Below, in pieces: positions 2,281 through 48,900 of a stretch of 64,000 bases of DNA. A program made the translations under genes and the position numbers. The DNA lies in the IMG/VR virus record IMGVR_UViG_3300029258_004419, one strand, 5' to 3'. Positions within the stretch are counted from its first letter, which is position 1; each line of letters begins with the position of its first letter. The notes under the pieces are model-generated. The model worked only from the letters and a program-made list of their open reading frames with translations. It was not told the origin of the DNA and made no database searches. Source of the stretch: a virus.

Positions 2281-2656
<376 letters not shown>

Positions 2657-2662
2657 GTTCTC

Positions 2663-2761
2663 GAACAGGGTTGCCGAGACAGGCCAAAGGCGCCCACGAT
2701 GGTGCTCAGCAAAGCCGGACTGCGCTGAGCTTCGCGGGTTCAAATCCCGCCCCCTGTTCCA
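2663..2761 (+). tRNA. tRNA-like element (non-canonical; possible pseudo-tRNA or class II-derived)
   Basis: Perfect 7-8 bp acceptor pairing (GAACAGGG / CCCTGTTC). Tyr-type D-arm TTGCCGAGACAGGCCAAAGGC. Canonical T-arm GCGGG-TTCAAAT-CCCGC. The middle holds only an 11-nt linker plus a 7-bp hairpin with a 13-nt loop. I could not fold a 7-nt anticodon loop. Confidence 0.4.
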
Positions 2762-2767
2762 GTTCTA

Positions 2768-2852
2768 TGGCCGCCTGCAGGGGATTGGGACCACAGCTCC
2801 CTTAGTGCTTTCCCCCCCTCCTGCAGCGAGATCGTGCTCCTGCAGGCGGCCA
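2768..2852 (+). other. long hairpin (13-14 bp perfect inverted repeat), possible small structured RNA
   Basis: GGCCGCCTGCAGG (2769-2781) pairs with CCTGCAGGCGGCC (2839-2851). The loop contains complementary G-rich and C-rich runs. It lies between the tRNA-like element and the terminator. Confidence 0.25.
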
Positions 2853-2902
2853 CCCATTCAAGAACAAGCCGCGAGTGGCGTAGCGCGGTTGTTCGCAGCT
2901 GG

Positions 2903-2938
2903 CCGGGCGCTTCCTTCGGGAGGTGTCCGGTCTTTTTT
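2903..2938 (+). terminator. rho-independent terminator
   Basis: 12-bp stem CCGGGCGCTTCC/GGAGGTGTCCGG (three G:U pairs), TTCG tetraloop, then TCTTTTTT. Confidence 0.7.
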
Positions 2939-2973
2939 ATTGCTCAGTGCCCTCCAGCAAACCGGCAACTCAT

Positions 2974-2994
2974 CCGGTATAAGTTTAATGAAGC
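2974..2994 (+). promoter_or_regulatory. promoter-like box CCGGTATAAGTTTAATGAAGC
   Basis: Same box as at 878. It lies after the terminator and 34 nt upstream of GTG 3028. Followed by a GCCCC/GGGGC hairpin. Confidence 0.5.
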
Positions 2995-3027
2995 CCCATA
3001 TTTACGACGGGGCATAGGAGGTGTTCT

Positions 3028-3807
3028 GTGGCAACTGCGAAGAAGACAGCGACGAAGAAGGCGCCGGCCAAGAAGAAGCCCGCGGCGAAGAAAGGAGGCG
3101 GGCTCGTGTCCGTCTCGTTCCCGCCGGTGAGGACGGAGCGCATCCGCGTCAGGGTGCGCAACCGGCCCGGGTCTCCGCTCGTCCCGCACAAGTGGGCCGA
3201 GAAGGGCAAGCTGGAGATCCTGGCCAAGCAGCTCCAGATCCCCAAGCAGAAGAAGGGCCCCCGCAACCCGCACAAGGAGTGCGTCGACTCGGCGTACTGG
3301 ATCAAGGGCAAGCCCTCCGAGGTCGATCCCCTGGTCATCCCGCAGCTCGCCGAGGGCGAGACCCTCGACTACAACAAGCTGCTCGAGCTCACGGACAAGC
3401 TGAAGAAGGCATTCGCCAAGGGGACCTTCGGCATCCCGTCCGTGGCGTTCGCCAAGGCGATGGTGTCGGCCGTCCGGCACATCGACGGTCCGACGATGGC
3501 GGCGACCCGCGGCATGTTCTTCGTGGTCGGCGACGCTGCGGACGGTGACCTGGTCACCATCCAGAGCAAGAACCCGCCGACGATGCGCGAGGACAACGTC
3601 ACCATCGGCATGGGCAAGTCCGACCTCCGCTTCCGGTGCGAGTTCGCCGAGTGGGAGGCGGACGTCACCATCGAGTACGACCCCTCCCTCATCAAGCCCA
3701 ACCAGCTGACCCACCTGCTCGACCGCGCGGGCTTCGGTGTCGGTGTCCTCGAGAACCGCCCGGAGAAGGGCGGCCAGTGGGGACGCTTCATGGTGGTGAA
3801 GCGATGA
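3028..3807 (+). CDS. hypothetical protein with histone-H1-like Lys/Ala-rich N-terminal tail
   Basis: GTG 3028 lies 7 nt after AGGAGG. The N-terminus is MATAKKTATKKAPAKKKPAAKKGGG, followed by a ~230-aa globular part. No family recognised. Confidence 0.75.
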   Translation: MATAKKTATKKAPAKKKPAAKKGGGLVSVSFPPVRTERIRVRVRNRPGSPLVPHKWAEKGKLEILAKQLQIPKQKKGPRNPHKECVDSAYWIKGKPSEVDPLVIPQLAEGETLDYNKLLELTDKLKKAFAKGTFGIPSVAFAKAMVSAVRHIDGPTMAATRGMFFVVGDAADGDLVTIQSKNPPTMREDNVTIGMGKSDLRFRCEFAEWEADVTIEYDPSLIKPNQLTHLLDRAGFGVGVLENRPEKGGQWGRFMVVKR

Positions 3808-4313
3808 TCTTCTCGTGGAAGAAGATGGCGCGCGGGCTGCTGGCCCACGACGCCCAGGCCATCGGCGATCAGATCCTCGAGCTCTACGAGGAGCACGGCG
3901 ACGCGGGCGCCGACGTTCTGGTCACCGCGGCCCGACGGGCGAAGCGCAGTCCGCTCGGGCAGGCCATCTTCGACCGCACCGTGGAGGAGGCCGCCGAGGC
4001 CCACTGGCGCAGCCAGGCTGGGTACGTCCTGCGGTCCATCCTCTACCTGCCCGAGACCGACGATGAGGAGCAGCACCCCATCCGCGCGTTCCTCACCCTC
4101 GACGTCGAGTTCGAGGAGGCCGACCCCTCCGAACCCGACACGATGGACGTCACCATCGAGCGCGTGACCGCGCCGACCAAGGTGGTGATGAGCAACGCGG
4201 AGATGCGAGATGCTGCTCTTCGCACGGCGAAGCGTGAGCTCAAGGCGTTCCGAGAGAAGTACCGGGACCTGAAGCAGCTCGCCGGCGTCTTCGCCGAGAT
4301 CGACGCGCTCTAG
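3804..4313 (+). CDS. hypothetical protein
   Basis: Track ORF 3636..4313 trimmed to ATG 3804 (ATGA overlap with the upstream stop). 169 aa, helical and acidic. Confidence 0.7.
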   Translation: MIFSWKKMARGLLAHDAQAIGDQILELYEEHGDAGADVLVTAARRAKRSPLGQAIFDRTVEEAAEAHWRSQAGYVLRSILYLPETDDEEQHPIRAFLTLDVEFEEADPSEPDTMDVTIERVTAPTKVVMSNAEMRDAALRTAKRELKAFREKYRDLKQLAGVFAEIDAL

Positions 4314-4350
4314 TCCAATCCGAGACAGAAGACGTGGTGCGGATTGGTGG

Positions 4351-6170
4351 GGCCGTCATGGTACTTCGCGCAGTGGCGGGGTGAGGTTTCCCAAGGTCAG
4401 GCGCGCTATGGTTAGGCCGTCATGTCAGGCATCGACTATCATGGTGCGCCGGGGTATGGCTCGGCCAGGCCGTCTTGGTAGAACTTGTAATGTTGAGTTG
4501 AGGTGCTGCGGGGGGCGTGGCCGTCGAGGCGAGTCGCGTCCAGGAATCGGATGTCTAGGTTCTGTTTGGCCGGGCCGTCTTGGAGAGTTCCGGTTGCTCC
4601 TGTTATGGAGGGTACGGCAGGTCGGGGCCGTCGAGGTCAGGCATAGTGAGCCATGTCAGGTCTGGGATGGTGCGGCCGTCGTGGCTGCGTGAGGCGGCTT
4701 CGGAATGCGGTACGGAATGGTGGGCTTGGTCTTGGCCGTCAAGGCAAGCTACCGTTCGGCAAGACAGGTCGCTGGCGCTGCTCGTTGATGGTGCGGCCGT
4801 CGTGTTGAGAAGTGGAGAGGTACGGTCCGAAGAGGCAGGACGCGTTAAGGCTCGCCCGTCAAGGCAAGACGAGTCGCGTCCAGGACCGGTCGGCATGGTC
4901 AGCTTTGTCGAGGCCGTCAAGGAATGGTACGACTTGTGTGCATTGGTGCGGAGAGGTCTGGCCGTCTAGGTTGGACGAGTTTCCGCGAGTCGTGCTGTTG
5001 GTTGCACCTGGTGCTGTGAGGCCGTCGAGGTTAGGTCTACTACGGTGGGCCGAGTCTGGGTTAGGTATTGCGCGACTTGGCCGTTGCGGTTAGGTCAACA
5101 TCGGTGGGACGAGTCCCGTTTAGGATGGCGCTGTCTTGGCCGTCAGGGTTGGGCTAGCTATCCTTAGTTGGGCTGCGGCACGTCCCGGCCGTCCCGTTAC
5201 GGTCTGCCGACGTGAGTCCTGGAATGGATGGCATCGACTTGGCAGGGCCGTCTAGGTGGAGCACGGTCGGCATCCCGGGTTCTTGTTCTGGCTGTCATGG
5301 AAGGCGCGACCTTGGAAGTCTAGGCTTCCGCGAGGCGAGCCTGTCGTGACAAGTCCTGTTCGGGCAACACTAGTTCGGGCGAATCAGGTCAGCGGTATCG
5401 CTGGGCCGCCAAGGTTGGGTGAGTCGTGACCCGTCAACGTGCGCCTCGGCCGTCCAGGTAGGGATGGGTCTATCGCGGCATGTTGCGGTGGTACACGACT
5501 CGGCCGTCTAGGTTAGGTCCCCTGGTTACGGTGCGCCGCGGGCATGTCCAGGCCGCGCGGGGTATCGGTACGGCCGCTTCGGAAGGGAGTGATGAGTGGA
5601 GTGGCCGTTTTGGTTCGATGAGGAATGGCGTGGGGAACTTGGCAGGGCCGTCTCGGCCAGGTCTCCCGGGCCGTGACGAGGCGCTGGATTGGTAGGGCCG
5701 GACTCGGCCGCCAAGGCCTGCTGGAGCAACCGCGGAACGAGGTTGTTCTGGGTCTCCTGTGGCCGTCGAGGCTACGTGAGGAGTGCAGAGGGCCGAGTGG
5801 CTGGGCCTGCTCTGGCCGTCGAGGTAGGCGGGGCTAGTCAACACGCGAGTTGGCTGCGTCTTGGTCTGCTGTGGCCGTCGAGTCGAGTTGGAACGAGGGA
5901 TGTCGAGGCAAGGCCGGTCATCGGTCTGCTCGCGCCGTCGTCTGGCCGTCTTGGACGGTCATCGTCTGCCGTGGTCCGGGCGAGGAAGCCTAGTCCGGGC
6001 CGTCGGGTCGGGCCAAGCCGGCGTCCGTCGAGTGCGTGGTACGCTGTCCGTGTGGCCGTCGCGGCAAAGCTGGGCTCTGCTGGTCGTAGCAGCTCCTGGT
6101 GAGGTCGTCAGGGCCGGGCAGCGGACCAACTGGTGCTGTGGAGGGACGGGATAGCCAAGAGGCGTCCGTC
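4351..6170 (+). repeat. unidirectional array of ~34 degenerate units with core GGCCGTC-N-W-GG; non-coding
   Basis: 24 exact GGCCGTC copies by manual count (4351, 4415, 4468, 4519, 4573, 4626, 4674, 4734, 4795, 4912, 4960, 5020, 5138, 5187, 5246, 5448, 5502, 5646, 5761, 5814, 5873, 5944, 5998, 6054). About 10 further copies have one mismatch. All share one orientation, mostly 44-64 bp apart. The top strand is strongly G+T-rich. No ORF with an RBS or plausible composition. Confidence 0.85.
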
Positions 6171-6220
6171 GCGGCGAAGGGTGTTGGGGTCTGGCCCCTC
6201 ACTCCTGAGCCAGAAGGGCG

Positions 6221-6262
6221 GGGAGCGGCTCGAAGCCGTGACCCCGTCCCTCCACCTTTTTC
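6221..6262 (+). terminator. hairpin plus T-run at the end of the repeat array (terminator-like)
   Basis: GGGAGCGGCTCGAAGCCGTGACCCCGTCCC contains a CGGCT/AGCCG stem with GGGA/TCCC flanks, followed by CCACCTTTTTC. Confidence 0.35.
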
Positions 6263-6278
6263 TCAAGAGGAGGTCGAG

Positions 6279-6524
6279 ATGGAGACGCTGACCGAGGAAG
6301 CTGTCAACCGGCTGCCGTGGAGGACCTGGGCGAACCGAGGTGACGAGCGCGTCGACGCTCCTCCGTGCAACCGCGGCTGCGACCCGAGCCCCGACGCCAT
6401 CGGCGGATACTACGGCATGTCCTGGACCGAGGTGTTCAAGGACCAGCAGAGCGGGGAGCTCTACCGGGTCGAGTGCTCGGACGGTGTCAACGGCGGGAAG
6501 GGCGCCTACGAGGATGAGGAATAA
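6279..6524 (+). CDS. hypothetical protein
   Basis: Track ORF 6099..6524 trimmed to ATG 6279, 6 nt after AGAGGAGG. The upstream part lies in the repeat array. 81 aa. Confidence 0.65.
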   Translation: METLTEEAVNRLPWRTWANRGDERVDAPPCNRGCDPSPDAIGGYYGMSWTEVFKDQQSGELYRVECSDGVNGGKGAYEDEE

Positions 6525-7784: not shown

Positions 7785-8306
7785 ATGCTGATCGGAACCT
7801 ACGAAGAGGAGTGGAGGCCGGCCGTCGGGTACGAGGATCTCTACGAGGTGAGCAGCTATGGTCGCGTGCGCCGGCTGAATGCCACGAAGAGGACCCCTCC
7901 GCTGCACATCGTGCCCCAGAACCCGTGCGGAGTCCGTGGATACCTGCAGGTGCCGCTGCACAACGGCGAGAAGTACCGGCTGACTCTCGTCTCCGACGTG
8001 GTGACCGCCGCATTCCTGGGTCCGAAACCGTCCGGTCTCGAAGTCAACCACGTCGACGGGGACACCCAGAACAACCAGGTGTGGAACCTGGAGTACCTGA
8101 CCCACTCAGAGAACGTCGAGCACGCTTGGAGAGAGCTGAAGACCACCCCCTCCCGGCCGGTGAAGCTCAATCCAGAGCGCGTGAGACTGATGCGCCGGCT
8201 GCGAGAGCAGGGATTCACCATCCGCCGGCTCGCAGAGACGTTCTCGGTAGGGGAGTCCACTGCTCGCATGGCCGTGAATGGCCAGACCTGGGCCAACGTC
8301 ACCTGA
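7785..8306 (+). CDS. HNH homing endonuclease (NUMOD4 + HNH_3 type) with C-terminal HTH
   Basis: YEVSSYGRVRR matches the NUMOD4 motif. EVNHVDGDTQNNQVWNLEYLTHSEN matches the HNH core. The C-terminus LRRLREQGFTIRRLAETFSVGESTA is HTH-like. Confidence 0.85.
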   Translation: MLIGTYEEEWRPAVGYEDLYEVSSYGRVRRLNATKRTPPLHIVPQNPCGVRGYLQVPLHNGEKYRLTLVSDVVTAAFLGPKPSGLEVNHVDGDTQNNQVWNLEYLTHSENVEHAWRELKTTPSRPVKLNPERVRLMRRLREQGFTIRRLAETFSVGESTARMAVNGQTWANVT

Positions 8307-10814: not shown

Positions 10815-11285
10815 TCAGCCTCCCTTCAGCTCGAGCTTGTCCTCCTGGAGCTCCCTGCGCACCTGCATCAGCAGCTGGCCGAGCCAGTTCTCGCCAACGC
10901 CGTTGCACACGCCCCAGAAGGTGTCTCCCCAGTCGTTGCCCTCGACGAGGTGTGCATCGCCGGTCGCCAGCAGCTTCACGCCGAGGTCCTCGTGGTAGGT
11001 GAACTTGCTGCGCAGCAGGTCGCCCATGATCGCAACCTTGACGTCCTCCCAGTCGTGGCGCAGCTTCACTCCTCGACCCAGACGCTTCGCCTTGCCCGGG
11101 GTGCTCGCCGACTGCACACGCTCCCGATGCTGCAAGCTCACGCTCTTAGCCGCCTGGAACGCGTGCTCCACCGTGGGGTACTCCAGGCCGTCGAGGTGGA
11201 CCTCGGCCGGGTAGAAGTTGGAGAGGAACGAGAAGGGTCCGTTGAAGTGCTCGATGCTCTCGTGGAGCGGGATGGCCTTCTTCAT
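10815..11285 (-). CDS. NADAR (DUF1768/YbiA-like) family protein
   Basis: FSFLSNFYPAEV..GLEYPTVEHAFQAAK..GKAKRLGR..DWEDVKVAIMGDLLRSKF..LLATGDAHLVEGNDWGDTFWG..GENWLGQLLMQVR matches the NADAR signature along its length. ATG 11285 lies 7 nt after AGGAGG. Confidence 0.85.
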   Translation of the reverse strand: MKKAIPLHESIEHFNGPFSFLSNFYPAEVHLDGLEYPTVEHAFQAAKSVSLQHRERVQSASTPGKAKRLGRGVKLRHDWEDVKVAIMGDLLRSKFTYHEDLGVKLLATGDAHLVEGNDWGDTFWGVCNGVGENWLGQLLMQVRRELQEDKLELKGG

Positions 11286-11572
11286 TTCCAACCTCCTGGT
11301 ATTGGTAGCCCAATCGGCTCCTCTTCCCGGCAGGGAGGGATCTCGATGTTTTCCATGGACGAACGCTCTTCTGCCAGCTCGGGGGCGTAATTCAGTCGTG
11401 GGTTTGGCCAGCGCCTCCCACAGGTGATGCAGGCTACGGTCTTGGGCTCCGGACCATAGCCGACGCCGTCAGCTACCACATCGACCTGGTCTCCACTGCC
11501 GTTGATGACCACGCTTGCTCTTACAGACATGACGAGGAGTGAGCTCCCACAACTACAGATGTGCATCTTCAT
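11282..11572 (-). CDS. hypothetical Cys-containing protein
   Basis: ATG 11572 follows GAGGTGAGGA. ATGA overlaps at both ends. Cys pairs CSCG...CITCG. Confidence 0.6.
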   Translation of the reverse strand: MKMHICSCGSSLLVMSVRASVVINGSGDQVDVVADGVGYGPEPKTVACITCGRRWPNPRLNYAPELAEERSSMENIEIPPCREEEPIGLPIPGGWK

Positions 11573-24009: not shown

Positions 24010-24434
24010 CAAACACCTCCCGCGCTGTCGCACCCCTGCTCGGAGCAGGCGTCACAGCACTTGTCGTCAACACGACACCGCTCGCACACCTCGGCGTCGC
24101 AGCCCTCGATCTCCTCCCAGGGAACGGTGCGGTGGCAGCGCTTGCACTCCGCCTCTCCGGGGGGTTGAATGGCCAGCTCCTGCCTGATTCGGTCGAGCTC
24201 GGCCGAGAGATCCCGATGGGTCTCGTCCAGAGCCTCGAAGACCTTGAGGGAGTTGTATCGCTTGCCACAACGCTCCATCGTGTTCTGCAGGATCCTGATG
24301 GCGACGTCCGCGGCCGAGAGGGAAGGATCTCCGATTACGAAGAGCTGGGACTGCAGCCAGACCTGCACCTCCCAGGGGATGGGGGTGGCCTCAAGCGGGC
24401 CGGGCGGCTTGCGCCCCTTGTGCACCAGGATCAT
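24009..24434 (-). CDS. hypothetical protein with Cys-rich C-terminus
   Basis: 141 aa. ATGA overlap. Contains CKRC...C..C.RC..CC.AC. Confidence 0.6.
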   Translation of the reverse strand: MILVHKGRKPPGPLEATPIPWEVQVWLQSQLFVIGDPSLSAADVAIRILQNTMERCGKRYNSLKVFEALDETHRDLSAELDRIRQELAIQPPGEAECKRCHRTVPWEEIEGCDAEVCERCRVDDKCCDACSEQGCDSAGGV

Positions 24435-25072
24435 CTCGACCTCCCGTGGTGCTCGACGGGCTTGTAGCCCGGAGAGTTTCTGATCATCCTCATCTGCTCG
24501 AGGACGTCCAGGTAAGACATCGGGGTGTAGTCCGTCTCGGGGGCGTCAACGCCGCAGTCGAACGACAGACCGTGCGGAGGTAGCTCGCCGTGAGAGTGAC
24601 CGAAGAGGTGCCACGTTCCCCAGTGGGCCTTGTGCCACTTCCTCATCGCCCAGTGGCACAGCACGATGTCGGGTAGATCTCCTGGCATCGAGAGGCGAAG
24701 AAGATGATAGATACCCTCGAAGAGCTCTGCCCTCTTGCTCCCGGGCTTCACCAACCCATGGTCACCCAGCACGTAGAGGATACGGCCGTTGAGCATCGGT
24801 ACGAATCGGTCGAGGTCCTTCTCGGCCATCGTGAGGTCACCCACCACGAAGACCAGACCGTTCTTGGGTACCTTGCGGTTCCAGCGGTCGATGAGCTGCT
24901 CGTTCATGAGCTCGAGATCTTGCCACGGCCTGTCGGCGTAATCGGGCAAGAAGATCTTCTTGTGGCCCAGGTGCAGGTCGGCCGTGAAGAACAGCCTGTC
25001 GATGTCCTGCTCACCGATCTTTCTACGTTCCACCTTTCCTCTCCTCCCAAGGAGCCTTGTCGATGAGCTCAC
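24431..25072 (-). CDS. metallophosphoesterase (calcineurin-like phosphoesterase)
   Basis: FFTADLHLGH, VVGDLT, VLGDHG and GHSHG motifs occur in the canonical order. GTG 25072 lies 9 nt after AAGGAG. Confidence 0.8.
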   Translation of the reverse strand: MSSSTRLLGRRGKVERRKIGEQDIDRLFFTADLHLGHKKIFLPDYADRPWQDLELMNEQLIDRWNRKVPKNGLVFVVGDLTMAEKDLDRFVPMLNGRILYVLGDHGLVKPGSKRAELFEGIYHLLRLSMPGDLPDIVLCHWAMRKWHKAHWGTWHLFGHSHGELPPHGLSFDCGVDAPETDYTPMSYLDVLEQMRMIRNSPGYKPVEHHGRSR

Positions 25073-43772: not shown

Positions 43773-44369
43773 CTAGTCCTCCCTCCTCTTTTTCCTTTTG
43801 TTGAGCTTGTCCAGATACTTCTGCCTGAGGTCTGGGAGGCCCTGCATGAGCTCATCGTAGTCGAACAGACCGAACACCTCCTGGATGTAGATCTCCTCCT
43901 CACTCCACTCGACGATGGTATCCTTGTAGAGATCGACGTAAGAACACTCCCTACGCCTCCCCTCGATGAACGCCACCCCCCTCCTACGGAGCCTCCACAG
44001 CCCAGAATCTTTTTTCCTGGTGTCGGTGTTCAGCTGCGTCTCGATCAACTTCCAGTGCTTACCGAACCAGGCATGCTGCCCGTTGGAGAATGGCTTGGTG
44101 AGCGGGTGTCTTCGTACATCGATCCAAGGGAATCTCCCCAGCAACCAGTTCACCCTCGAGCAGCTACTTTTGCTAGCCTCATAGAGACCGAAGAGGAAAT
44201 GGGAGTGGTACATCTTGATCGTATTGCGATACACCTTGGCGAGTCCGTCGCAGACCCCGCACACACACCCATTCTTATCGAATCGGTGTAGCATCACCCA
44301 CTCTCGGGCGATCTGGATGTCGATATGAATGGGGAATTCGGTTGGAGGGTACTTCTTCAAGCTCGGCAT
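43773..44369 (-). CDS. hypothetical protein, paralog of CDS 30140..30631
   Basis: Trimmed to ATG 44369 (TGATG-type overlap). Contains CVCGVC..AKVYRNTI...WKLIE...SGLWRLRRRGVAF. Confidence 0.65.
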   Translation of the reverse strand: MPSLKKYPPTEFPIHIDIQIAREWVMLHRFDKNGCVCGVCDGLAKVYRNTIKMYHSHFLFGLYEASKSSCSRVNWLLGRFPWIDVRRHPLTKPFSNGQHAWFGKHWKLIETQLNTDTRKKDSGLWRLRRRGVAFIEGRRRECSYVDLYKDTIVEWSEEEIYIQEVFGLFDYDELMQGLPDLRQKYLDKLNKRKKRRED

Positions 44370-45592
44370 TAATCCTCCCAAATGTCGCTGATCTCCTCTG
44401 CGCAACCGCAGTCCGGAGTAGCGACAGGGTCGTAGTCCTTGTCATCGAGCAGCTGCACACCCCGGAGGGGCTGTCGGCTGCGGTGAGTGAAGAGCAGGTC
44501 AGTAGTTCCTCGGACGCCTTCCCTCACGGTGTCGTCGATCAGGCAGGCGTCTTCCCACTCGTCAGGGCGGTCGCGCTTCATCCGCGCCCACTCGGCGTCG
44601 GAGTGGTAGGGACAGCCGATGCAGCTCGAGCGAGGAGGGATGGGATAGCCCATCGCGGACATCCACTCCACGCAGCCCTGCCGGCTCACGTCGAGCTCGA
44701 GCAGTGGCCAGCGTACACGTACCCAGGTCTCGTCCGCGGGCCGGGCCCGCTGGTTCTCGTCGGTGCTGATGCCCAGCCACTGCTCGACCTTGCGCAAGCC
44801 GACATGCTGTCCCTTGCGGAGACCGAAGAGCTCCTTCACCTTGCGCATGATCGGCAGGAGCTTGTACTCCCTCGTGCAGAGCCGGCGCAGCCTGCCCTTG
44901 CTGCCGGAGGCGTCCAGGGTGTAGAGCGGGGGCCCTGCCCACCTAGCTCCGTCCAGCGCGCTGGACATCATGTCGTGACGGATGTTCCCGCCGGTCACCC
45001 GATGGACAGGAAACGGTACCACGCGCTCGAGCCAGTCGAGGTGCCGGTAGACCGCGGCTGGCTCCCAGCCCGTGTCCGAGAAGATGGCGCAGTCGGGCCT
45101 GCTGATGACTCCCTCGGCCACCATCAAGGCGATGGCCGTGGACTGGACGCCGGCGCCGAGGGACAGGGCGTGCAGGGTGGCAGGATGGGGTCGGAAGATC
45201 AGGCGCCCGAACCGGGGGTGGACGAGGCCGATCCCCTTGAGATCCTCCTGGGGGTCGGAGTAGCTGCCGCGGCGCTCCTCTTCCTCGACCACGGCCTGGA
45301 AGCCCTCGGGTGTCAGTGAAAACCCTGGGATGTGCCAGCCGGGGTGGTCGGCCGCGATGTTCGTGGCCTCGATGGCTCCGTAGTCGACGCCGGCGCAGAG
45401 GACCTCGCAGACCTTCTCCATCGGCCTGTTGTAGTCCCGTGGGTCGACGCTGCGCGGGCCGCCGAACTTCTTGGCCGCGATCTTCACTGCCTGTGGCACG
45501 AGGGCGTTGTCGGGCCCCACATCCAGGACGGAGAGGACGGCGAACTCGTCGTGCTCGAGGCGCCTGATCCAGTAGCCCAGCGTGTGCTTCAT
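44369..45592 (-). CDS. PAPS-reductase-like (adenine-nucleotide alpha-hydrolase) protein with ~110-aa N-terminal extension
   Basis: The SLGAGVQSTAIALM P-loop-like motif and downstream pattern are typical of phage PAPS-reductase-family proteins. 407 aa. Confidence 0.7.
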   Translation of the reverse strand: MKHTLGYWIRRLEHDEFAVLSVLDVGPDNALVPQAVKIAAKKFGGPRSVDPRDYNRPMEKVCEVLCAGVDYGAIEATNIAADHPGWHIPGFSLTPEGFQAVVEEEERRGSYSDPQEDLKGIGLVHPRFGRLIFRPHPATLHALSLGAGVQSTAIALMVAEGVISRPDCAIFSDTGWEPAAVYRHLDWLERVVPFPVHRVTGGNIRHDMMSSALDGARWAGPPLYTLDASGSKGRLRRLCTREYKLLPIMRKVKELFGLRKGQHVGLRKVEQWLGISTDENQRARPADETWVRVRWPLLELDVSRQGCVEWMSAMGYPIPPRSSCIGCPYHSDAEWARMKRDRPDEWEDACLIDDTVREGVRGTTDLLFTHRSRQPLRGVQLLDDKDYDPVATPDCGCAEEISDIWED

Positions 45593-48092: not shown

Positions 48093-48392
48093 CTACCAGT
48101 CGAAGACAGTCAACCCCTCGACGGTCGGGCCGTCTCGGTCGAGCCGCAGGAAGGAACAGTTCTCCTTCTTGCAGCGCATCAGGATGGCGAGGAGCGCGTC
48201 GCTGTAGCCCAGCTCCTTCATCGTGACCCAGTCCGACGGCTCCACGTTGATGAGCCACCCGTACTCCCCGAGAGGGTATCTGACCGGAGGATGGCCGATT
48301 GCCTCCTGGTCGAGCCTGGCAGCATCCTCTCTGGTGATGTGGGCCGTGCTGATGTCGGCCACGAAGTACTTCGGCAGGTGTCCAGTGCCCAT
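48093..48392 (-). CDS. hypothetical protein
   Basis: 99 aa. Normal composition. Confidence 0.65.
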   Translation of the reverse strand: MGTGHLPKYFVADISTAHITREDAARLDQEAIGHPPVRYPLGEYGWLINVEPSDWVTMKELGYSDALLAILMRCKKENCSFLRLDRDGPTVEGLTVFDW

Positions 48393-48393
48393 G

Positions 48394-48900
48394 TCAGTCC
48401 TCCTCCCCGCTCGTATCGCTCGTCACCTCGGGAGCCGAAGCCCCCCGCCGGAACGAGACCCGATGCGTCTCCTCCGGAGGGATTCGCTCCTTCTGCATCG
48501 TGTCGAGGGGGACGGGCCACCGCGGGTTGCGCTCGAGCGGCCGCATCAGGATACCGCCGTCGAAGGAGAGCTGCGAGAACACCACGCGGCGCTCGTCGGA
48601 CAGCACGAGGAACGTGCCCATCCAGGGCTCGTCCTCGAGGGAGAGCTCACACCAGCGGCCGTAGATCCGGCACTCGCGCTCGAGCGCCTCGTAGGCCCAG
48701 GCCTCCAGGAACTCTACCCCTGGCGGGATGTCGGTCAGGGCGATGTCGATCCGGGCCATCCCCATCTCGATGTGGTGCACCTCGATCTTCTCATCGAACT
48801 CGGCGAAGTCCCAGATGGACATTCCGTAGAAGAGCTTGAAGAGGTTGCAGGCGTCGGTGTCTGCATAGATCATTCCGTAGAACTTCCTCGATACGGACAT
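48394..48900 (-). CDS. hypothetical protein
   Basis: ATG 48900 follows GGGAGG. First gene behind promoter-like box 48927-48949. Confidence 0.7.
   Translation of the reverse strand: MSVSRKFYGMIYADTDACNLFKLFYGMSIWDFAEFDEKIEVHHIEMGMARIDIALTDIPPGVEFLEAWAYEALERECRIYGRWCELSLEDEPWMGTFLVLSDERRVVFSQLSFDGGILMRPLERNPRWPVPLDTMQKERIPPEETHRVSFRRGASAPEVTSDTSGEED

Follow-up and report, generated by a model that had tools for sequence, protein, structure and literature searches.

The sequence analysed here is a 64,000-nt stretch of a phage genome (IMG/VR record IMGVR_UViG_3300029258_004419; hereafter the window), and its positions 4,314 to 6,262 form a tract of about 1.9 kb without called genes. We are confident that this tract is a vrRNA guide array of the Viral Interference Programmable Repeat (VIPR) system, in a phage of ~147 kb (possibly up to ~200 kb). 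VIPR has been described as a phage-borne RNA-guided DNA-silencing system (bioRxiv 10.64898/2026.04.26.720920; 10.64898/2026.04.26.720927), and these 2026 preprints propose that it is older than CRISPR. According to the same two preprints, the VIPR locus is minimal and mostly phage-borne, with vipr, a single accessory gene called vap, and long non-coding flanks that encode vrRNAs of 9-16 YNNGG repeats (up to 30). These vrRNAs guide Vipr filaments to double-stranded DNA, and the natural targets reported for Vipr are competing phages, satellites and prophages. In the SUSP1 system, the arrays are transcribed and co-purify with Vipr (bioRxiv 10.64898/2026.04.26.720920). The tract had been noticed in an earlier reading of the letters alone (hereafter the sequence-only reading); that observation is real and correctly delimited, its kind is already known from the preprints, and the locus is a further example. 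The evidence at this locus consists of the membership of a protein family, the grammar of the putative RNA, and the comparative linkage between a gene pair and the array.

The tract is marked by a repeated box, GGCCGTC. There are 24 exact copies on the plus strand between 4351 and 6060 and none on the minus strand inside the tract, while copies with one mismatch add 11 more on the plus strand and only 3 on the minus strand. In the 62 kb of the window outside the array, the box occurs 20 times on the plus strand and 17 times on the minus strand, so that no comparable density is found elsewhere in the window. By chance, ~0.55 copies would be expected per strand per 1.85 kb, and the enrichment in the array is ~40-fold. 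The box-to-box distance is 43-65 bp in most units; two gaps are longer, at 101 and 114 bp. In its extended form the box reads GGCCGTC-N-W-GG, with A or T at position +8 in 75%, G at +9 in 97% and G at +10 in 81% of the copies, and it is retained at 1.6-2.0 bits per position across 32 phased copies. In total, the array holds ~31-35 units over ~1.85 kb, and only 7-11 nt are conserved per unit. The tract is G+T-rich (GC skew +0.19 to +0.30, AT skew -0.15 to -0.28), the unit lengths are not multiples of three, the open reading frames (ORFs) in it reach 137 aa at most, and no gene between those for the 169-aa and 81-aa proteins was called in two independent public annotations of the same contig. 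These results agree with the sequence-only reading, which had counted 24 exact boxes and about 10 with one mismatch, all in a single orientation, 44-64 bp apart and extended to GGCCGTC-N-(A/T)-GG, and which had taken the tract to be G+T-rich and non-coding, with less than one box expected by chance.

The same reading had described the inter-box segments as not conserved. This description fails, since it overlooked a regular spacing of GG dinucleotides in these segments. The GG period in the array is 4.9 nt, with a spectral peak at 13 times the mean; in the coding DNA next to it, only a 3-nt period is seen. When the window was scanned in sliding steps, GG periodicity was essentially limited to 4200-5600, where the power is 10-17 compared with a median of 2.7. 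When we tiled the 12 units that stay in register from box to box into pentamers, starting from the box, position 1 was G in 78% of the tiles (0.89 bit), position 2 was G in 52% (0.33 bit) and position 3 was a pyrimidine in 84% (0.36 bit), while positions 4 and 5 carried 0.02 and 0.00 bit. This composition, a constrained GGY next to a free NN, is the signature of VIPR guide RNAs. A global parse gave a similar picture: 43% of the tiles start with GG, compared with 28±1% in shuffled sequences, 13% on the opposite strand and 19% in coding DNA, and 79% of the in-phase GG dinucleotides are followed by a pyrimidine. The vrRNA search criterion of the preprint is at least four tandem YNNGG units. One such strict run (4450-4469) is present in the array, with 0.03 expected in shuffles, and four runs of four NNNGG units are present, with 0.9 expected; the preprint itself allows degenerate and alternative consensus repeats.

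The box can be placed within this grammar. GGCCGTC would be the start of a 9-nt tile, GGC-CGTC-NN, that is, a normal GGC tile into which four fixed nucleotides are inserted, after which the next GGY follows. The pentamer register passes through the box with a shift of -1, and because of this shift the unit lengths favour values ≡ 4 (mod 5), which are found in 13 of the 31 units (p=0.004). Units of 43-65 nt hold ~7-12 tiles, which is at the low end of the published guide range. The array RNA is predicted to fold no better than shuffled sequences (z=-0.44 and -1.49), as expected for a single strand coated by protein. The sequence-only reading had also proposed a phased protein-binding platform. 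A platform for a protein agrees with our results, but phasing by five helical turns of a duplex does not, and the relevant phase appears to be 5 nt on a single strand.

The gene at 3028-3807, the first of two genes immediately upstream of the array, encodes a 259-aa protein of phrog_4652. When the family profile of this protein was compared with the Protein Data Bank (PDB), a single solved structure was matched, 36pp, the 'SUSP1 Vipr protein' (E=1.9e-9). The match spans 114 residues and takes in both the thumb and the G-loop. In this alignment, Arg138 of the SUSP1 thumb pairs with R203, which is invariant in the 259-aa family, and the SUSP1 G-loop D177-W178-R179 pairs with E242-N243-R244, while SUSP1 H17 and K33 fall outside the aligned stretch. 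In addition, an AlphaFold2 model of the protein (9-sequence alignment, pLDDT 70.6) gave Csm3/Cas7 RAMP matches at probability 1.0. Based on the profile match and the model, the protein is assigned to the Vipr RAMP proteins. Its residues 1-25 (3028-3105) form a predicted disordered, Lys/Ala-rich N-terminal tail, MATAKKTATKKAPAKKKPAAKKGGG, which is reminiscent of H1/HU-type DNA-binding tails. This tail is missing from most Vipr relatives (204-220 aa), and the Vipr protein of locus L095 (4114-4995) has a similar Lys/Ala-rich tail, but at the C-terminus.

The second gene, at 3804-4313, encodes a 169-aa protein of phrog_15946, so that the locus has the two-gene minimal form of vipr and partner, followed by 1.95 kb without called genes. 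The phrog_15946 family is present beside 63 of 79 related Vipr genes and is, on this co-occurrence, the standard partner of this Vipr clade. The partner had no Pfam, NCBIfam, PADLOC or PDB sequence match, and in a protein sequence search it was an orphan through which no synteny was found. The AlphaFold2 model (pLDDT 92.4) combines a helical bundle with a beta-hairpin sheet and a long helix at the C-terminus; no significant structural neighbour was found for it in the PDB, and the predicted fold may not yet have been solved. The sequence-only reading had chosen the products of these two genes for binding tests, and they are indeed the right ones, a putative RAMP-family Vipr and its partner.

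The linkage between the gene pair and such arrays was examined in relatives. As a single-sequence query, the 259-aa protein returned no relatives in IMG/VR, but the family profile found 244 IMG/VR contigs, from which 80 loci were examined. In 76 of these 80 loci, GG-periodic sequence of 300 nt or more, reaching 2.4 kb, adjoins the gene on the vipr strand. The array spacings in the relatives are 44, 49, 54, 59 and 64 nt, all ≡ 4 (mod 5). GGC[C/A/T]GTC punctuation is also found in loci L266/L133, L264, L323, L318, L072 and L095, and the 4.9-nt GG period in L133, L335 and L072. A pattern scan of IMG/VR for phased boxes gave three contigs (L072, L133 and L095) with non-coding, G-rich arrays of the same box in one orientation, and in L133 and L095 the arrays lie after homologues of both upstream genes of the window (phrog_4652 and phrog_15946). 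The three-box pattern scan of IMG/VR otherwise matched mostly coding repeats, no comparable array was present in the bacterial genome loci that the extended-box scan retrieved, and the array DNA showed no similarity to GenBank phages in near and distant search modes.

The closest analogue of the array in the window is found in IMGVR_UViG_3300031854_000004 (L133, identical with L266), where very clean GGY/NN tiles, punctuated by GGC[C/T/A]GTC, lie on either side of the partner gene and add up to ~2.4 kb. This array, split on two sides of the partner, is the longest among 81 loci, followed by that of the window (~1.85 kb) and that of L297 (~1.65-1.9 kb). A small ORF predicted from its sequence to be RHH/CopG-like follows the array of L133/L266. 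The same gene pair is also present in cultured phages, namely Mycobacterium phage Quico and Gordonia phages ODay and Pipp, with canonical YNNGG arrays in the short gaps beside the pair. Their punctuation is GGCAGGC, in which a 4-nt tile, GGCA, gives the same -1 register shift. In Pipp (MN234179.1; L254), gene 43, a 'hypothetical protein' at 4557-4826, coincides with a canonical YNNGG array (runs 4585-4765) and is probably a mis-annotated non-coding array. In ODay (MW534375.1; L255), vipr, the partner, the array and two HTH genes occupy 3100-5650 between the tail assembly chaperone and tape measure genes, a moron-like position, while the system lies in the early region in Pipp and Quico. A different arrangement is seen in IMGVR_UViG_3300032001_000013 (L072). 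Arrays of the GGY/NN type with GGCCGTC boxes at 1000-1620 and 2346-3180 flank a structural-looking 234-aa gene upstream of a putative tail sheath gene, and neither Vipr nor the partner gene was detectable in the 12.9-kb locus, so these arrays are apparently detached from vipr.

The features of the locus in the window, all on the plus strand, are as follows.

2901 to 2942, plus strand: terminator-like hairpin and T-run, with a 14-bp stem (9 GC pairs) followed by TTTTTTATTG.
2943 to 3027, plus strand: leader and presumed promoter region of the vipr operon, placed by its position between the terminator and the vipr start codon.
3028 to 3807, plus strand: predicted vipr, 259-aa RAMP-family protein, phrog_4652, by its profile match to PDB 36pp; G+C content at third codon positions (GC3) 0.94.
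3804 to 4313, plus strand: predicted accessory gene in the vap position, 169 aa, phrog_15946, by phrog match and family alignment; 4-nt overlap with the vipr stop.
4315 to 4347, plus strand: 8-bp hairpin between the partner-gene stop and the first box, doubtful (z=-0.76 compared with shuffles).
4351 to 5600, plus strand: well-formed part of the putative vrRNA array, ~22 head-to-tail units, each with the 9-nt tile GGC-CGTC-NN and ~7-11 G-G-Y-N-N pentamers.
5020 to 5137, plus strand: duplicated unit pair, two adjoining 59-nt units, 79% identical (Tandem Repeats Finder period 59, 2.1 copies).
5601 to 6170, plus strand: degenerate 3' part of the putative array, ~10 more boxes (5603-6164), periodicity power <8.
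6138 to 6262, plus strand: long stem (6138-6255) formed by GGAGGGACGGG and CCCGUCCCUCC, enclosing smaller hairpins and followed by a U-run.

The layout suggests that vipr, the accessory gene, the array (4351 to ~6170) and the terminator-like stem are most likely transcribed rightward as one precursor, in agreement with the proposal of the sequence-only reading that the array could be transcribed with the two upstream genes. The predicted hairpin at 2901-2942 is the upstream boundary, which parts the operon from a tmRNA region, and no sigma-70 consensus was found in the leader at 2943-3027. The tmRNA itself, a phage tmRNA at 2281-2656 on the plus strand just upstream of the operon, was matched by Rfam at 106 bits, and ARAGORN predicts the tag peptide ADDDTVEAPLANAA. 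At the other end, the stem with its U-run is probably the 3' end or the terminator of the array transcript; the RNA of 6138-6262 has a fold of -75.4 kcal/mol (z=-3.05), which only 1 of 200 shuffles equalled, although a simple terminator scan did not call it. The array had been thought to be bracketed by hairpins. The 5' hairpin at 4315-4347 exists but is not significant, while the 3' end holds up, as a longer stem than had been described. Within the array, the 59-nt pair at 5020-5137 appears, from its sequence, to consist of recent duplicates and would show that the array grows by duplication and divergence of units.

By analogy with the published systems, the array would be transcribed and processed at the box, and filament formation and silencing of the DNA of competitors would follow. 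As in the SUSP1 and Pseudomonas fulva systems, one Vipr protomer would bind each 5-nt tile, G-G-Y-N-N, sequestering GGY and exposing the two N bases. The string of NN bases would then pair with the double-stranded DNA target, with every third target base skipped, and the filament would silence transcription of a competing phage or mobile element. In the window, the GGC-CGTC-NN tile, via its -1 shift, would separate guides of ~8-12 tiles, and this 9-nt tile may stand in for the boundary role of the ~40-nt structured tail in vrRNAs of the SUSP1 type.

Compared with VIPR type II (Escherichia phages SUSP1 and SUSP2, and a Pseudomonas fulva prophage), the window shares a Vipr RAMP gene, one accessory gene and long non-coding flanks. 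It also shares 5-nt tiles with GGY fixed and NN free, guides of ~9-16 tiles, an array on the vipr strand, and conservation of the thumb Arg and the acidic-x-Arg of the G-loop. However, each SUSP-type vrRNA is ~100 nt long and has a pseudoknotted 3' tail of ~40 nt and its own flanking hairpin leader, with ~4 vrRNAs per locus, while the window has ~31-35 head-to-tail units of 43-65 nt divided only by the 9-nt tile. For this comparison we used SUSP2, which has a Vipr segment identical to that in the SUSP1 PDB entry, and the tails of its vrRNAs were clearly visible. The window further differs from the SUSP type in its relaxed second guanine (G2), in Asn for Trp178, in a partner unrelated to vap1, and in the Lys/Ala-rich tail of its Vipr. 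Much closer is the Vipr/phrog_15946 clade (Quico, ODay, Pipp and IMGVR_UViG_3300031854_000004), which shares both protein families, frequently the 4-nt overlap at the vipr stop, and tail-less head-to-tail arrays with lengths ≡ 4 (mod 5), with GGC[C/A/T]GTC in a subset. The relatives in this clade differ in having purer tiles (64-84% GG) and in keeping the Trp of the G-loop. The cultured members have only ~2-5 units and GGCAGGC punctuation, and many relatives have arrays on both sides of the partner gene, whereas the window has one very long degenerate array downstream. Tail-less 'staggered' arrays are described by the preprint in other VIPR types, and the register-shift arrays of the phrog_15946 clade are probably these 'staggered arrays' (fig. 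S18).

Two further comparisons concern systems outside VIPR. Like CRISPR systems with Class 1 Cas7 backbones, the window has a RAMP-fold protein, which would oligomerise along a guide RNA, and a many-guide array next to the protein genes, and the preprints give both systems a role in conflict with mobile elements. In contrast to CRISPR, it has no repeats of 23-47 nt alternating with unique spacers, no cas1, cas2 or other cas genes and no adaptation machinery, and its guide information would be non-contiguous, lying in 2 of every 5 nt; repeat tools found no CRISPR-like repeat family in the array. A CRISPR array was also rejected as a candidate in its own right, with a conserved part too short for it (7-11 nt per unit) and no cas or PADLOC families among the neighbouring proteins. 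The stoperators of cluster A mycobacteriophages are 13-bp duplex DNA repressor sites dispersed through the genomes. The window resembles them in that a short asymmetric motif is repeated many times in a single orientation in an actinophage-like genome, but here the copies are clustered in one non-coding tract, are linked to a RAMP protein and belong to an RNA grammar.

Here, we need to consider the points that weigh against a VIPR guide array. The VIPR literature consists of preprints only. GG periodicity is weak over 5600-6260, the last third of the array, and G2 is a G in just 52% of the in-register tiles. GG-start tiles reach 43% here compared with 64-84% in relatives, only one strict run of four YNNGG units is present, and 18 of the 31 units lose the register between one box and the next. 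The conserved structured 3' tail of ~40 nt, a feature of type II, is absent from the window, and the partner is not homologous to SUSP vap1 (hhalign probability 0.1). The Vipr of the window has Asn (N243) at the position of SUSP1 Trp178, the residue that stacks on G2 according to the VIPR preprints, while 69 of 76 relatives keep Trp; the window is alone among the 76 loci in having Asn, Gly is found in five, and the G-loop of the Vipr in the window also has a Gly-to-Leu substitution. The array has the second-lowest G2 conservation among the 76 loci. Across these loci, a relation between the G-loop residue and G2 has no statistical support (Asn n=1; the five Gly variants have normal G2), and the pairing of Trp-to-Asn with relaxed G2 is suggestive, a lead from a single case. 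Finally, four in-register guides were searched for as exact 1-nt-skip patterns with 18-22 specified bases, and five exact-pattern scans of IMG/VR and JGI metagenomes gave 0 matches, which is a weak test because the threshold for the published natural targets is an NN match of 80% or more. No self-targets were found above control skip rules, in line with the preprint's own control.

Many of these observations would also fit a VIPR array by descent that is mostly a decaying relic, with most of its units no longer loaded or used as guides. The low G2 conservation, the single strict run, the weak periodicity at 5600-6260, the out-of-register units, the two G-loop substitutions and the absence of targets for the four exact-pattern guides all point in this direction. 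Nevertheless, we regard a relic as improbable. The box is kept at high information in its 32 phased copies, and the constraint on positions 1 (G) and 3 (Y), with NN free of information, is a signature of selection rather than drift. Moreover, vipr and the partner gene are intact, with GC3 of 0.94, the units are still duplicating, as the 59-nt pair suggests, and the contig is identical in independent samples.

The other readings set VIPR aside altogether. The sequence-only reading had considered a double-stranded DNA platform of phased sites, such as iterons, a centromere, a packaging (pac) site or a decoy, and boxes ~55 bp apart in a single orientation, together with a Lys/Ala-rich N-terminal tail of Vipr that could touch DNA, would suit such a platform. 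We consider it highly unlikely, because the strand asymmetry and the 4.9-nt period, half a helical turn, are unsuited to same-face binding of a duplex, and the adjacent protein has a predicted RAMP fold, which binds RNA. In 76 of 80 relatives, the arrays lie on the vipr strand, with the box sequence varying between relatives while the GGY/NN grammar, which the inter-box segments of the window also follow, is kept; and the homologous arrays of SUSP1 are transcribed and co-purify with Vipr (bioRxiv 10.64898/2026.04.26.720920). The other suggestion of the sequence-only reading, a G/U-rich sponge RNA, which would titrate an RNA-binding protein of the host or the phage, fits a long, repetitive, G/U-rich putative transcript with many copies of a short motif, but has very little probability in our view. 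A fixed GGY with an NN free of information is the grammar of a guide and not of a repeated identical binding site, and the characterised members of the linked RAMP family, to which the upstream Vipr belongs, use such RNAs as DNA-targeting guides. Neither suggestion is supported. The least probable reading, which we give almost no weight, is that the tract represents a protein-coding repeat gene, either decayed or unconventional, or else a generic genomic repeat of the REP-like kind. The tract does contain ORFs of up to 137 aa, but its units do not come in multiples of 3 nt, its main period is 4.9 nt rather than 3, and the public gene calls leave the tract empty; for a REP-like element, the ~40-fold enrichment of the box is confined to this tract, and the bacterial loci from the pattern scan contain no comparable array.

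Several other candidates were rejected. For tRNA-like units, ARAGORN finds only the tmRNA, and the 3' ends of the units are not complementary to the box, so that no acceptor stem is formed. Rfam at the gathering threshold likewise found only the tmRNA, and at E<=1 on 4250-6300 it gave no hammerhead ribozyme and nothing beyond a chance-level M23 match; in one VIPR subtype, hammerhead ribozymes are interspersed between the vrRNAs. Once Vipr had been identified, further ideas fell away, namely a TRAP-like ring or SSAP filament in which each subunit reads 5 nt, wrapping of DNA at a 10-bp period, and a skew linked to R-loops or Rho avoidance.

The window comes from a phage contig of ~147 kb in a metagenome (JGI 3300017989), and an identical sequence is present in another public assembly. 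Apart from the array, isolated stretches of 200-300 nt with raised 5-nt GG/CC periodicity (power 10-11) are found at 11151-11350 and 48301-48600 on the plus strand and at 24201-24500 on the minus strand. They lie inside or beside coding ORFs and could be due to chance, given the number of windows tested, or could be solitary vrRNA-like tracts. The source contig (L121) also carries, ~1.6 kb before the start of the window, a gene for a 386-aa protein (4601-5761) with a precomputed AcrVA2-like Pfam match (PF26125). Within the window, genes for an HNH homing-type endonuclease (NUMOD4, HNH_3 and HTH_7; 7785-8306, plus strand), a NADAR-domain protein (10815-11291, minus strand) and a PAPS-reductase-like protein (44369-45592, minus strand) are typical accessory genes of a large phage.

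Based on these observations, we tentatively suggest, as an idea with a modest chance of being right, that the window contains a dialect of the VIPR code, in which a tail-less precursor carries ~31-35 guides, the boundaries are set by the -1 shift tile only, and a Vipr with Asn in the G-loop reads G-N-Y/NN instead of G-G-Y/NN. If this were true, the second guanine would be dispensable and guide boundaries could be encoded by frame shifts alone, and a single phage would possess a natural guide repertoire that is among the largest known for VIPR. With ~31-35 guides in one precursor, compared with ~4 at the SUSP1 locus, the array would imply a broad set of targeted competitors. The -1 register-shift tiles found across the clade suggest how filament length may be set without a structured tail, and the Trp-to-Asn change in the G-loop with a relaxed G2 is a natural variant that offers a testable hypothesis on specificity. 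Cultured actinophages that can be handled in the laboratory (Quico, ODay and Pipp) carry the system of the same clade, and arrays of this kind can be recognised from sequence alone.

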